Below, piece after piece: positions 1-5,492 of a stretch of 5,726 nucleotides of DNA. A program made the translations under genes and the position numbers. Position 1 is the stretch's first letter. Each line of letters starts with the position of its first letter. The DNA comes from a virus: positions 1-5,726 of IMG/VR virus record IMGVR_UViG_3300045988_001819, one strand, 5' to 3'. Under the pieces are notes generated by a model. That model searched no databases. It was not told the DNA's origin and saw only the letters and a list, made by a program, of their open reading frames with translations.

Positions 1-119
1 CTCCTTTCTGTGGTTGATTTGTGCAAATACCACCGGTTCGCCAGCGCTGGAGGCAGAGCATTCCTCCTTTACATTTGGACGCCGGTTCCCCTATGTCAAT
101 TTTACCAAAAAAAAAAAAC
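1..119. repeat. Left copy of the exact 119-nt terminal direct repeat (circular-contig overlap)
   Basis: Base-by-base comparison shows identity with 5608-5726, including the A12 run at 107-118. Confidence 0.95.
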
Positions 120-147
120 GCAAGGTCAACTTTCGTCAACCTCACGT
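107..147 (-). terminator. Intrinsic terminator downstream of the 52-aa acidic ORF
   Basis: The minus-sense RNA reads ACGUGAGGUUGAC-GAAA-GUUGACCUUGCGU followed by a U11-12 run. That is a 13-bp stem with a GNRA loop. Four of the pairs are G-U, which become C-A mismatches on the other strand, so the hairpin only forms well in minus-sense RNA. Confidence 0.8.
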
Positions 148-155
148 TTTTTGGT

Positions 156-314
156 TTATCTTTCGTATTCTTTGAGTTTTTCACAGATTGCGTTTGTCCA
201 TTCGTCATCCATGTTGTACTCTTCTTTTATCTGCTCTCGGTCTTCGCTTTTCCATCCACCGTCATATAGTGCTGCTGCGCAGTTTTCAACTTCTTCTTCA
301 TAGTAGCTTTTCAT
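156..314 (-). CDS. Hypothetical 52-aa highly acidic, aromatic-rich protein (MKSYYEEEVENCAAALYDGGWKSEDREQIKEEYNMDDEWTNAICEKLKEYER)
   Basis: Hand translation runs from ATG 314-312 to TAA 158-156. AGGAGG lies 6 nt upstream of the ATG. The protein has 16 D/E against 7 K/R, and 7 Y/W. It has its own consensus promoter upstream and a strong terminator downstream. It is below the ORF-track size cutoff. Confidence 0.7.
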   Translation of the reverse strand: MKSYYEEEVENCAAALYDGGWKSEDREQIKEEYNMDDEWTNAICEKLKEYER

Positions 315-333
315 GGTGCGCCTCCTATTTTGT

Positions 334-352
334 GGTGTGCTCTTCTTACACC
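334..352 (-). promoter_or_regulatory. Candidate operator: inverted repeat GGTGT-N9-ACACC starting 3 nt downstream of the P1 -10 hexamer
   Basis: Read directly from the sequence. A repeat of the same geometry, AGTGT-N9-ACACT, sits at the same offset from the second promoter (1994-2012). Confidence 0.5.
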
Positions 353-355
353 TTT

Positions 356-384
356 ATTATACACCTAAAACATACACTTGTCAA
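356..384 (-). promoter_or_regulatory. P1: perfect consensus sigma70/sigmaA promoter (TTGACA-17 nt-TATAAT) driving the 52-aa ORF
   Basis: On the minus strand, TTGACA is at 384-379, the spacer is exactly 17 nt, and TATAAT is at 361-356. The promoter is intergenic and has an A-rich tract (GGCAAAATT) upstream. Confidence 0.75.
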
Positions 385-429: not shown

Positions 430-469
430 AATGAAAAGGACGGCGTAGCTTTCCGTGACTACGCCGTCC
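430..469 (-). terminator. Probable intrinsic terminator after VP4
   Basis: The minus strand reads GGACGGCGTAG-(10-nt loop)-CTACGCCGTCC, a perfect 11-bp GC-rich stem at 438-469. It is followed by TTTTCATTC and lies about 70 nt after the VP4 stop codon. Confidence 0.6.
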
Positions 470-537
470 TGTGTCCTCTATTCTGTCGTTCTTCAGCTTG
501 ACTTGTCTTTTGCTCTGCTTTTTGATCGCTGTGGCCG

Positions 538-1659: not shown

Positions 1660-1706
1660 GTCACCTAGCCCCTATAACCTTCTTGATGTTATAGGGGCTA
1701 GGTGAC
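1660..1706. other. Perfect 19-bp inverted repeat with a 9-nt loop, immediately upstream of the VP4 translation start
   Basis: GTCACCTAGCCCCTATAAC (1660-1678) pairs with GTTATAGGGGCTAGGTGAC (1688-1706). The loop is CTTCTTGAT on the plus strand and ATCAAGAAG on the gene-sense strand. No U-run follows it on the gene-sense strand. Confidence 0.85.
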
Positions 1707-1752: not shown

Positions 1753-1780
1753 GAAGTGACCGAGTTCGCTCGGTCACTTC
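1753..1780. other. Perfect 12-bp stem-loop overlapping the stop codon of the RHH gene
   Basis: GAAGTGACCGAG-TTCG-CTCGGTCACTTC. In gene-sense RNA it is followed by UGCAACAUUUAUCC, a poor U-tract, so it is at best a weak terminator or attenuator. On the plus strand it is followed by GTTTCTTT. Confidence 0.8.
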
Positions 1781-1977
1781 GTTTCTTTGAGCTTCCACTT
1801 ATTGGCGAATGTGTATCCCGTTTCCTTTTCGCAGTAGCATACTATTGCTTCTCGTATGATGTCGCTGGTGGTCATCTTCTGCCCCCTGTTCATCATTTCG
1901 TGTTCGAGACTTTCTAGTGCTACCTGCTCTCTGTCGGTAAGATTGACATTAAATCTCTTCGTGATCTGCGTTCTCAT
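1774..1977 (-). CDS. Ribbon-helix-helix (CopG/Arc/MetJ-type) DNA-binding protein, 67 aa; putative transcriptional repressor
   Basis: The sequence reads as strand-helix-turn-helix. KRFNVNLT has the alternating beta-strand pattern, DREQVALESLEHEMM would be helix 1, a G-containing turn follows, and TSDIIREAIVCY would be helix 2. This compares with CopG KRLTITLSESVLENLEKMAREMGLSKSAMISVALENY. AGGAGG lies 5 nt upstream of ATG 1977. The gene has its own near-consensus promoter. Confidence 0.7.
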   Translation of the reverse strand: MRTQITKRFNVNLTDREQVALESLEHEMMNRGQKMTTSDIIREAIVCYCEKETGYTFANKWKLKETK

Positions 1978-1993
1978 ACTAGCCTCCTAGCTA

Positions 1994-2012
1994 AGTGTGT
2001 GATTGGTACACT
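1994..2012 (-). promoter_or_regulatory. Candidate operator: inverted repeat AGTGT-N9-ACACT starting 3 nt downstream of the P2 -10 hexamer
   Basis: Arm length, spacing and offset match the P1 repeat at 334-352. The arms differ by a paired G-to-A and C-to-T change that keeps the symmetry. Confidence 0.5.
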
Positions 2013-2015
2013 CAT

Positions 2016-2044
2016 AATATACACCTCTTTTCTCCACTTGTCAA
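2016..2044 (-). promoter_or_regulatory. P2: near-consensus promoter (TTGACA-17 nt-TATATT) driving the RHH gene and probably VP4
   Basis: On the minus strand, TTGACA is at 2044-2039, the spacer is 17 nt, and TATATT is at 2021-2016. It begins 5 nt after the VP2 stop codon. It matches P1 at 27 of 38 positions from the -35 onward (hand count). Confidence 0.7.
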
Positions 2045-3000: not shown

Positions 3001-4623
3001 TTAGATGGTATCAAGGCCCGGGATGCTGTAGATAGGCATTGCCCTTGTCCACGTCTGGTCGAAGTAGAAGTTGCAGATAAATTGACGGGATTTGTCGCTC
3101 TGAATTGCGATAGTCCGGTCAATGTTTTCCGTGCCCTCTTTAATCCAGTCGCTCGAGAGAGTTGGGAGACTCGTATACTTGTCCGCGTAGTGCCACGCGT
3201 CCAAGGTCTGCGTGTAAGTGCTGCGCATTTCTCCCGTTATCATGTTTGTTCGGTACCTATAGTCGGCCCAGGCCTCCTGGTACCCAAACACCTCCTCGTC
3301 TTTTGCGTTGCCTTGTGCGTAGATCTCCTGATTGAGTACTGCTTGTTCTCCGAGGTTTGCAAGCATTGGGTCATAGTAGGAAAAGCGTGTGCTGCGTGTC
3401 CACATTCGAGAAAGGCCCTGCTGATAGCTGTGATCAACTCGCACCGCTGCCAGACCGATGATGAAGCCATGCTCCGTTGCGCTGTACGTTGCCATGTTCC
3501 GGCTCATCGTGGTCATGGAGAATGCTGCTGTGTTGCCCTGCGGACTTGTTGAATCCGTGCTGGATGTCTGAATGACCTGATTGATGTTGATAGGCAGTCT
3601 ATACCCGCCGATGTATTCCGATCGGTCAAGCCGTGCATCTGGACTGGTGACGCCCCAAGCTCCTTGCAGGATTTCCTTGTACCGCGTGCCGGTGCGTGCA
3701 TCTCTCTCTAAGATATGCTGTACTGCGATAGCCTGCCGCAGCTCGTTGATGGTCGCGGCTGTTACGTTGCTCATGTCTGCGCCAAGTACTGGGTGCAGGC
3801 TATCGTCTCTTTCGGTGTATACCTGTGCTGGTTTCGCTCCGCTTGTTTTGTCTCCGTTTACGCCTGCAAAGTAAGGGATGAAGTTTGTTATTAAGTTTAG
3901 GTCTGTGTTGTCCAGTTTTTCTTTGAGGCTTGCTGTGCCGTATCCATAAATCGGCGCCGCTCCTGTCATCGGCAGCGTCACTCCCTCGCCTTTCTGAGGA
4001 CTCGGTAAGCAGCTCGTGTAGTAATCTTTGTATTTACAGACTTTGAGCGGCAGGCCTCCGGCTTCGGCGTCGGTGAGTGCCGTTCCTGCGTTGCTTCCTG
4101 CGGTCGTGGCGTCTGATTTGCTCATCGTGACAGGCTGCTGCAGATTTTCGTCTCGAAACCATTCGTTCCAGATTTTGGCATAGGCCCTGAAAGGCAAGCT
4201 GTTCACCTGAAGGTTTTCTACTCCGGTCGGAATGCCGAAGTAATCCGCCAGCGTGCCCACTTTCCAGCCTCCGGCCGGTGCGGTCGTTTTCGGAGTCGTG
4301 TACTCTACCGTTTCCGCCCAGAAGGTCGAGTCGTTCTGGCCCATGAGATTTTCGAAGTGCTCCCACAGCAGCCGCGACGGCACGAAGAAGAAGTAAAAGT
4401 CACAGTAGCAGTTATCCATGACAGGATACAGCGGTGTGCTCATACGCATCAGAGCATTCAGATCGATCTTTGCCGTGTCTGCCGGGAGTACCTCATCACA
4501 GTAGATCGGGACGAGATCACCCTCATTCATCGTGGTCAGGAGAGAATAGTCTCGTTTGAAGCGTGCGCGCGGCACGTTTGCATGAGGCACTTGGCTGTAG
4601 TGTTGTTCAGCGTTGCGGTTCAT
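3001..4623 (-). CDS. VP1: Major capsid protein VP1 (Microviridae F-type jelly-roll capsid)
   Basis: The 540-aa protein carries family hallmarks. These are the N-terminus ...RARFKRDYSLLTTMNEGDLVPIYCDEVLPADT, then CKYKDYYTSCLPSPQKG, TINELRQAIAVQHILERDARTGTRYKEILQGAWGV and SEYIGG. A segment of about 80 aa between PQKG and TINELR fits the gokushovirus insertion loop. Confidence 0.95.
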   Translation of the reverse strand: MNRNAEQHYSQVPHANVPRARFKRDYSLLTTMNEGDLVPIYCDEVLPADTAKIDLNALMRMSTPLYPVMDNCYCDFYFFFVPSRLLWEHFENLMGQNDSTFWAETVEYTTPKTTAPAGGWKVGTLADYFGIPTGVENLQVNSLPFRAYAKIWNEWFRDENLQQPVTMSKSDATTAGSNAGTALTDAEAGGLPLKVCKYKDYYTSCLPSPQKGEGVTLPMTGAAPIYGYGTASLKEKLDNTDLNLITNFIPYFAGVNGDKTSGAKPAQVYTERDDSLHPVLGADMSNVTAATINELRQAIAVQHILERDARTGTRYKEILQGAWGVTSPDARLDRSEYIGGYRLPININQVIQTSSTDSTSPQGNTAAFSMTTMSRNMATYSATEHGFIIGLAAVRVDHSYQQGLSRMWTRSTRFSYYDPMLANLGEQAVLNQEIYAQGNAKDEEVFGYQEAWADYRYRTNMITGEMRSTYTQTLDAWHYADKYTSLPTLSSDWIKEGTENIDRTIAIQSDKSRQFICNFYFDQTWTRAMPIYSIPGLDTI

Positions 4624-5372: not shown

Positions 5373-5492
5373 TTACAGACGGATGCCGCCGCGCGACGGC
5401 TTCGGGTTGATGTTGATTTTCTTTGTCTTTTTTGCGGTGTTGGTAAACACTCGCTTATCCTTTTTCGGATTGACCGGCATTCTGTGAGCCAT
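5373..5492 (-). CDS. Small basic DNA-binding/packaging protein (phiX174 J-like, gokushovirus ORF8-type), 39 aa: MAHRMPVNPKKDKRVFTNTAKKTKKININPKPSRGGIRL
   Basis: Hand translation runs from ATG 5492-5490 to TAA 5375-5373. The protein has 12 K/R in 39 aa and a C-terminal RGGIRL. AAGGAGG lies upstream (GGAGG 8 nt from the ATG). It is below the ORF-track cutoff. Confidence 0.7.
   Translation of the reverse strand: MAHRMPVNPKKDKRVFTNTAKKTKKININPKPSRGGIRL

Follow-up and report, generated by a model that had tools for sequence, protein, structure and literature searches.

In the virus record IMGVR_UViG_3300045988_001819, a small gene of 67 codons (ORF67) located between VP2 and VP4 of a gokushovirus was found to be a real, conserved gene under purifying selection, and its product is very probably a genuine ribbon-helix-helix (RHH) DNA-binding protein. 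The reading that we favour, and to which we give a slightly better than even chance, is that ORF67 is a CopG-like autorepressor that limits the rolling-circle replication initiator VP4, and that a second promoter of the genome (P2) is regulated together with its own.

The first 119 nt of the window (the whole 5,726-nt stretch of DNA analysed here) are repeated at its end, leaving a unit of 5607 nt; this terminal repeat indicates that the genome is complete and circular, with a size of 5607 nt. The window is the complement of the coding strand, and every recognisable gene lies on its minus strand. These are VP1 (3001-4623; Pfam Phage_F, 5e-164), VP2 (2050-2988; Pfam and PHROGs), VP4 (538-1653; Pfam REP_ORF2-G2P, 3e-17, and phrog_942, 2e-93), VP3 and VP5 (both identified by Pfam and PHROGs), and a small conserved ORF of unknown function (5373-5492; phrog_10695). 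ORF67 (1774-1977, minus strand) begins with ATG and encodes a 67-aa protein, MRTQITKRFNVNLTDREQVALESLEHEMMNRGQKMTTSDIIREAIVCYCEKETGYTFANKWKLKETK. A ribosome-binding site, AGGAGG (1983-1988, minus strand), stands 5 nt before the ATG, and a purine-rich, Shine-Dalgarno-like stretch precedes ORF67 in nearly all of the listed relatives. Farther upstream is a promoter, P1 (2016-2044, minus strand), in which a -35 box TTGACA (2044-2039) and a -10 box TATATT (2021-2016) are separated by a 17-nt spacer, with 11 of 12 matches. An earlier note on this DNA, made from the sequence alone, had described the gene with its position and size, the AGGAGG site and the TTGACA-17-TATATT promoter, and all of these were found again where it had placed them.

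Homologues of ORF67 were collected by two protein searches. A search of 5.8 billion proteins gave 22 homologue clusters with 54-94% identity, whose longest contigs measure about 5.5-5.8 kb, and a search of 1.84 billion representatives gave 41 ORF67 clusters, consisting of small proteins throughout. The order VP2-ORF67-VP4 is kept without exception in the 27 genomes that were fetched. A further 56 relatives, chosen by VP1, were then fetched. The gene occupies the same slot in all 58 genomes whose VP1 is at least about 67% identical, and it is missing from all 27 genomes whose VP1 is at most 63% identical. In two of the latter (L056 and L059), VP2 and VP4 adjoin each other directly or almost directly; given this arrangement in distant relatives, ORF67 is a clade-specific insertion. 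VP4 always lies downstream of ORF67 on the same strand (58/58 genomes), at a distance of 92-154 nt. Synonymous sites of ORF67 are saturated (pS 0.71 versus pN 0.38), and the 235 pairs without saturation give a median dN/dS of 0.45, with 98.7% of the values below 1. The survey of the VP2-VP4 junction that had been proposed in the earlier note therefore found the gene in close relatives (58/58) and in none of the distant ones (0/27), with coding constraint present.

The ORF67 protein is composed of a strand at residues 7-14 (KRFNVNLT), helix A at residues 15-30, helix B at residues 37-53 and a conserved tail, GYTFANKWKLKETK. AlphaFold2 predicts a monomer that is extended up to residue 14 and forms helices at 15-30 and 37-53 (mean pLDDT 72), in agreement with the strand-helix-turn-helix pattern that had been noticed in the translation; the same region of a relative, P0034, was modelled with pLDDT 92-97. 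Within the strand, hydrophobic side chains (F9, V11 and L13) take turns with polar or basic ones (R8, N10 and N12). K7, R8, N10, N12 and L13 are invariant among 23 close members, positions 9 (F/I/V) and 11 (V/I) vary conservatively, and R8 and N10 are kept at 90% or more among 49 family members.

By itself, ORF67 gave nothing significant in Pfam, NCBIfam or PDB and had a weak CopG-like match in PHROGs (E = 0.065). At the level of the family, Pfam RHH_1 was matched by 19 of the 49 members (best E = 1.1e-4) and Pfam CcdA by one member (E = 0.004). NCBIfam gave weak matches to aCcr1 (19/49 members, best 8e-4) and to the plasmid copy-control protein ORF56 (7/49, best 1e-4), all of them below the curated cut-off, which none of the family-level RHH matches reached. 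The family profile searched against PDB matched 5ytp (TTHA0139) at E = 0.0027, with the strand and both helices aligned, followed by a ParD antitoxin at E = 1.1. In hhalign, the family aligned over 40 columns with CopG of plasmid pMV158 (P = 8.5e-5, probability 60%); KRLTITLS of CopG was paired with KRFNVNLT, and both helices were also aligned. The same comparison with Arc and with lambda Cro gave nothing. The RHH assignment rests on the agreement of several weak searches, with no single strong match, and the recurrence of RHH extends over four profile libraries and one profile-to-sequence comparison. Within this fold, ORF67 resembles CopG and ORF56 more closely than Arc.

Structure searches with Foldseek (the ORF67 monomer against PDB and BFVD, and P0034 against PDB) returned nothing significant except one BFVD homologue with 57% identity; RHH proteins recur among the matches, only at E > 1. 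Such a result is expected for a monomer that folds only as a dimer. P0034, which is a natural 125-aa fusion with a degenerate second repeat, was used as a single-chain stand-in for the dimer, and its second half was predicted as helices (pLDDT 63-70) and showed no ribbon. The earlier note's claim of an accessory RHH-type gene with its own promoter and ribosome-binding site between VP2 and VP4 is supported by the conservation, the selection, the absence from distant gokushoviruses and the recurring RHH matches. The profile search that it had called for gives weak but agreeing matches to the class for the family, but not for ORF67 taken alone, which has no significant match in Pfam, PDB or NCBIfam.

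The most conserved sequence at the ORF67 locus is the non-coding core of P1, GGTGTATATTATGAGTGTACCAATCACACAC (1995-2025, minus strand), which is marked by its conservation as a candidate operator. Upstream of ORF67, 57 genomes (53 unique sequences) share the pattern TTGACA-N12-GAGGTGTATAwTATGrGTGTAynAATCryACACyT, and the 57 relatives compared keep the P1 promoter, apart from a few one-base changes in the -35 box. Mean pairwise identity over the 34-nt core is 0.88 among the 53 unique sequences, compared with 0.30 upstream of the -35 box, 0.48 in the stretch from the core to the ATG and, in the codons of ORF67, 0.44 at third positions and 0.62 at first and second positions. The core holds direct GTGTA repeats 13 nt apart, one overlapping the -10 box (2024-2020) and one at about +1 (2011-2007), with an inverted arm, CACAC, at 1999-1995; in relatives, (T/C)ACAC lies 7 nt past the second GTGTA. 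A degenerate third repeat, GTGGA, is present at 2037-2033. What variation there is falls into two-base blocks that separate GTGTA, AATC and ACAC.

The second promoter, P2 (335-384 together with its repeats, minus strand), consists of TTGACA (384-379), a 17-nt spacer and TATAAT (361-356), with 12 of 12 matches. It bears three GTGTA repeats at 13-nt spacing (377-373, 364-360 and 351-347) and CACAC at 339-335, and its consensus among relatives is cTTGACAAGTGTAT-N5-AGGTGTATAATAAAGGTGTAGAAAGGA. The earlier note had pointed to a second promoter at 334-384, and the sequence there proved to carry the same repeats as P1. Six promoter-like sites were found in the window against 5.1 expected, a total not above chance; those scoring at least 11/12 are only P1 and P2, which are on the coding strand, stand before ORFs and are conserved in relatives. 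P2 is present in 33 of the 57 genomes carrying ORF67 and missing in 24. The next ORF after it in the window is a small gene, ORF52 (156-314, minus strand), with no Pfam or PHROG match below E = 0.1, and in other genomes several unrelated small ORFs stand behind P2, differing from genome to genome. From these sequences, P2 looks like a conserved, similarly controlled promoter before a variable slot.

It could be supposed that ORF67 is an RHH DNA binder with its target elsewhere, in host DNA or at another phage site, and that the cores of P1 and P2 are merely strong host-type promoters with a leader. Since the P1 core includes the -10 box and the start site, part of its conservation does reflect ordinary promoter function. 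An exact 19-mer from the core, GGTGTATANTATGNGTGTA, also occurs at the position of a promoter before thioredoxin, recA, hsp20 and aldolase genes in metagenome-assembled genomes of gut Clostridia; however, its 52 genome-wide matches compare with about 69 estimated by chance (17 fixed bases, 596 Gb), and none of the 52 matches the P1 core beyond the 19-mer. Moreover, the GTGTA repeats are better conserved than the -35 hexamer, and the third GTGTA of P2 lies in a spacer that is normally unconstrained. GTGTA-N8-GTGTA, with at most one mismatch, occurs four times in the window, only at P1 and P2, where 0.2 would be expected and none of 200 shuffles reaches four; the 5.6-kb genome has no further repeated motif that stands out. 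We therefore regard this explanation as unlikely. The repeat pair is found in 58 of 58 genomes with ORF67 and in 0 of 27 without it, a co-occurrence that is confounded by ancestry because the carriers form one VP1-defined clade. Covariation between ribbon residues and repeats is not decisive: a variant with N12F (P0031) reads GCGTA in place of GTGTA in just one of its repeats, and the distant P0057, with KQVQVRLT, has different repeats in a context that is not that of a microvirus.

Two other roles for the conserved core were considered and rejected. An upstream ORF of 9-13 codons (MSVPITHLARRLV), whose stop codon lies over the ATG of ORF67, varies at codon positions 1 and 2 and is invariant at position 3; this broken codon pattern points to constraint on the nucleic acid and not on a leader peptide. 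The core of P1 and P2 could also be a plus-strand origin, and 33 of the 57 genomes carry two direct copies of it. From phiX174 biology, two direct origins in a rolling-circle replicon should give sub-genomic circles, and by this reasoning the origin was rejected as the main reading.

According to the autorepressor reading, ORF67 would come first in an early transcription unit running from P1 through ORF67 and VP4 to a terminator-like hairpin (437-470, minus strand), and a second unit would run from P2 through ORF52 to a strong terminator-like hairpin with a T run (113-152, minus strand), with the late genes following. No promoter-like site and no minus-strand terminator-like site was found from 1774 to 1653, and VP4 is probably co-transcribed with ORF67 from P1; the hairpins at 470-437 and 152-113 are likely to be the ends of the P1 and P2 units, respectively. 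A dimer or higher oligomer of ORF67 would bind the GTGTA repeats that span the -10 box and start site of P1 and block RNA polymerase, so that less ORF67 and less VP4 would be made, and the outcome would be a negative feedback on the level or timing of the replication protein. The repeats at P2 would extend this control to the variable small gene, which in the window is ORF52. We infer the dimerisation of ORF67, its binding to GTGTA, the repression and the co-transcription with VP4; autorepression of P1 and co-regulation of P2 are proposed because the modules of plasmids pMV158 (copG-repB) and pRN1 (ORF56) have a matching arrangement.

Two hairpins are found around the junction of ORF67 and VP4. 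One, of 12 bp, extends over the ORF67 stop codon (1753-1780) and, read on the coding strand, is not followed by a T run. The other is a perfect hairpin of 19 bp with the loop ATCAAGAAG, just before the ribosome-binding site of VP4 (1660-1706, minus strand). An Rfam scan of the window recovered no RNA family at E values up to 1. Covarying stems and a conserved loop mark the 19-bp hairpin, which as a whole has the opposite orientation in other clades; it is a general gokushovirus element and not specific to the ORF67 cassette. A GTGTCA in the flank of this hairpin was considered as an extra operator and discarded, as it occurs also in genomes without ORF67. The position of the hairpin between ORF67 and VP4, where it could impede read-through, counts against the proposed circuit, as do the lack of P2 in 24 of the 57 carriers and the 13-nt spacing of the GTGTA repeats, which is not a helical repeat.

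Plasmid pMV158 encodes CopG, a small RHH protein whose gene directly precedes that of the rolling-circle initiator RepB; CopG represses the promoter that the two genes share. CopG (RepA) is similar to ORF67 in being the product of a small RHH gene directly upstream of an HUH initiator, behind a single strong promoter; its strand and both helices align with those of ORF67, homology being weakly supported (probability 60%), and R8, N10 and N12 of ORF67 align with positions of the CopG ribbon that face the DNA in the CopG-DNA structure. On the other hand, pMV158 is a plasmid, whereas the carrier of ORF67 is a lytic-type single-stranded DNA phage, and ORF67 has a loop between helices A and B that is 3-5 residues longer and, unlike CopG, a conserved tail of 15 residues. 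CopG acts on an operator of 13 bp that is pseudosymmetric and lies at the -35 box, whereas the candidate operator of ORF67 is made of GTGTA repeats lying across the -10 box and the start site. The ORF67 system also differs in having a candidate second regulated promoter, P2, and no antisense RNA partner was seen. ORF56 of the Sulfolobus plasmid pRN1 (NF041793) is likewise an RHH copy-control protein encoded upstream of a replication gene; however, the plasmid is archaeal, its replication protein is of another type, and the matches lie below the curated cut-off. Arc and Mnt of P22 are RHH repressors that are also encoded by a phage and have operators overlapping promoters, but no sequence relationship of ORF67 to Arc is detectable by hhalign; P22 is temperate, has a double-stranded DNA genome and possesses an immunity region, whereas the partner gene of ORF67 is a rolling-circle initiator.

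For TraY, NikA and TrwA, the RHH accessory proteins of HUH relaxases, the RHH gene stands beside that of an HUH nuclease, and conserved binding sites upstream of it can also serve autoregulation. ORF67 shares with them the adjoining HUH nuclease gene and the conserved upstream sites; unlike theirs, its repeats are on promoters, about 300 nt from the origin-like hairpin, and each genome has the site twice. This likeness bears on a quite different possibility, namely that ORF67 is a DNA-anchored adaptor or replication accessory, whose RHH head would sit on the repeats in the double-stranded replicative form and whose tail would recruit a host or phage partner, repression being secondary or absent. 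Such a protein would resemble the RHH accessory proteins that aid HUH relaxases at oriT, or would work as the SSB tail does in recruiting the proteins that bind it, and it could coexist with autorepression. The position of ORF67 next to the HUH initiator VP4 and the conserved hairpin, whose loop is like a Rep nick site, speaks for it; the hairpin is the only origin-like element, and it lies about 300 nt from the P1 repeats. Against it, the candidate sites fall on the -10 box and the start of two promoters, as is typical for a repressor, and P2 bears the same sites yet is located on the far side of VP4, over 1.2 kb away from the hairpin.

The allele data favour such an adaptor as well. ORF67 alleles are nearly uncorrelated with those of VP1 (rho 0.16) and VP4 (rho 0.15), whereas VP1 and VP2 are linked (rho 0.87). 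A co-evolution of ORF67 with VP4 was rejected, as their identities to the window are uncorrelated (rho 0.15); the independent assortment suggests that ORF67 acts on shared DNA sites and not on a co-evolving Rep.

Evidence on the adaptor also comes from the C-terminal tails. The tail of ORF67 (GYTFANKWK...) is under purifying selection, with pN/pS of 0.22 versus 0.32 in the head, and in 26 of the 114 proteins of the family the C-terminus is an acidic run plus [LI]PF, e.g. AISEEEDLPF, behind linkers of differing length. The C-terminal tip of bacterial SSB, which is DDDIPF in E. coli and IDISDDDLPF in Gram-positives, mediates the protein interactions of SSB (PMC5872125, PMC5531588), and the acidic-LPF ends of about a quarter of the ORF67 family equal this tip peptide. 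The tip is carried by an OB fold in SSB, whereas in the ORF67 family it is carried by a head predicted to be an RHH that binds double-stranded DNA. These ends suggest that at least some of the LPF-tailed members recruit host proteins to the DNA they bind, and the Gram-positive form of the tip may point to a Gram-positive host. ORF67 itself, however, ends in ...KWKLKETK and has no acidic [IL]PF motif. Considering these points together, we rate the adaptor as a minority possibility, at about one chance in four. Of similarly tentative standing is the broader idea that the family is a modular DNA tether, in which the RHH head stays on GTGTA repeats and interchangeable C-terminal peptides recruit host machinery: the SSB-tip copies may bring SSB-interacting replication or repair proteins to phage DNA, and the GYTFANKWK tail may bind some other partner. 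Simple repression leaves both the constrained tail of ORF67 and the SSB-like tails of its relatives unexplained.

RHH proteins also serve as antitoxins (ParD/CcdA) and as centromere-binding partition proteins (ParG/omega), and ParD antitoxins are among the weak sequence and structure matches of ORF67, in addition to the CcdA match of one member mentioned above. The gene downstream is, however, VP4 in 58 of 58 genomes, and none of the nine ORFs of the window belongs to a toxin or partition NTPase family in Pfam or PHROGs; no ParA/ParM NTPase partner was found in the 5.6-kb genome. A ParM-like neighbour was seen only on a 48-kb contig, in which the phage stands beside plasmid-like genes; as this contig ends in an Illumina adapter (AGATCGGAAGAGCACACGT), it was set aside as a probable chimera. 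Because the partner gene is absent, we consider an antitoxin or partition role highly improbable.

As for the lifestyle, the earlier note had suggested temporal control, copy-number control or a carrier or persistent state. Among these roles, control of the level of the replication protein fits the gene order best, but a carrier or persistent state is unsupported: no integrase was found, and the peptide patterns of the family had no match in 185,579 reference genomes. A prophage or temperate state is equally unsupported.

In a global survey, the only recognisable accessory genes of microviruses were methyltransferases and lysis-associated genes such as peptidases (PMC9239249), and the earlier note's statement that the canonical gokushovirus gene set has no dedicated regulator agrees with this one survey. 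In the literature searched, no paper linked Microviridae or gokushoviruses with RHH proteins or regulators, and none described ORF67. Homologues of ORF67 are present and unannotated in the GenBank microvirus records KX513873, MG945186 and MG945797, which indicates that annotation pipelines miss the gene; in one JGI record, a homologue was automatically named an Arc/MetJ-type regulator. The ORF67 module would be an RHH autorepressor module in a genome of a kind where it was not expected.

Microviruses are usually described as being without regulators of their own. Here, a clade of gut gokushoviruses has a predicted DNA-binding protein, matching sites on two promoters and a promoter slot for variable genes. 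If the SSB-tip reading is true, mimicry of this tip by a phage protein that binds double-stranded DNA would be a new route from a minimal phage to the host replisome. The autorepressor reading offers a simple, testable circuit, mirroring the copy-control module of rolling-circle plasmids, by which a 5.6-kb phage could limit its own replication protein, and control of this kind could be relevant to how long gokushoviruses persist in the gut.

Comparison of the whole genomes L001–L027 with the window, together with identity correlations across 26 genomes, revealed that the genomes are mosaics. In L017, L023 and L024, VP1, VP2, VP3 and VP5 are 87–98% identical to those of the window, and the identities of ORF67 (the 67-aa RHH gene between VP2 and VP4) and VP4 are 47–67% and 47–48%, respectively. 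Across the 26 genomes, the identities of VP1 and VP2 are linked (rho 0.87), in contrast to the independent assortment of both ORF67 and VP4. The conserved non-coding blocks may have served as crossover points.

The region 156–384 (minus strand) holds P2, a conserved promoter cassette, behind which the small ORF differs from genome to genome. The ORF found in the window, ORF52 (MKSYYEEE...), had no match below E = 0.1 in Pfam and PHROG searches, and the P2 cassette is missing in 24 of the 57 genomes carrying the RHH gene. After ORF52 lies a strong terminator-like hairpin with a run of 12 T (within 99–152, minus strand), directly followed by TGGTAAAAT (107–99, minus strand), which may represent an extended -10 promoter serving the late genes. 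The T run plus GGTAAAAT is likewise recognized in L006 and L008.

In P1, the promoter of ORF67, an ATG within the core opens a 13-codon upstream ORF (MSVPITHLARRLV; 1974–2014, minus strand), which is preceded by GAGGTG and whose TGA stop overlaps the ATG of ORF67. Its variation is unlike the pattern of coding sequence, but translation of this ORF would still be possible if transcripts read through from VP2. An exact P1 19-mer, GGTGTATAATATGGGTGTA, was also found in a thioredoxin-gene leader conserved in eight Eubacteriales/Clostridia MAGs (L111, L116, L133, L137, L138, L142, L144 and L145), and further single matches lie upstream of recA, hsp20 and aldolase genes; the overall number of matches to this 19-mer is approximately at the chance level.

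Twenty-six of the 114 ORF67 family proteins terminate in an acidic run followed by [LI]PF (for example, …AISEEEDLPF and …MDDDDLPF), the same ending as the C-terminal tip of bacterial SSB. These tails, which are carried on linkers of varying length, are exemplified by P0044, P0056, P0072–P0092, P0097 and P0102, and by L013, L014, L016, L018, L020 and L021; the tail is not present in the ORF67 protein of the window. The most distant family member, P0057 (L090 and L091; ribbon KQVQVRLT), resides in a non-microvirus setting, where ORFs of 216–236 aa and 81–118 aa come after it and different repeats (ATCAG...CTGAT) lie upstream, and therefore the microvirus family grades into RHH proteins that belong to other elements. 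In the 48-kb contig L028 (ENA ERZ27281030 k141_41694), a related microvirus is present as a near-complete copy joined to plasmid-like genes (ParM-like, HTH and ABC transporter). Because this contig ends in the Illumina adapter AGATCGGAAGAGCACACGT, we regard it as a probable assembly chimera rather than a prophage.

A single long perfect hairpin with a stem of 12–20 bp exists in each of the genomes compared (the window, where it lies upstream of VP4 at 1660–1706 on the minus strand, L059, L060 and L062–L078), and its loop is conserved while its stems covary. In the RHH-carrying clade, the mRNA-sense strand bears the loop ATCAAGAAG and the 5' flank TTGTGTCA. The sense strand of 10 gokushoviruses without the RHH gene bears the exact reverse complement (loop CTTCTTGAT, 3' flank TGACAC), and CTTCTTGAT is similar to the nick site of phiX174/pC194-type Rep proteins. 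If this hairpin is the plus-strand origin, the entire element would be inverted relative to the genes from clade to clade.
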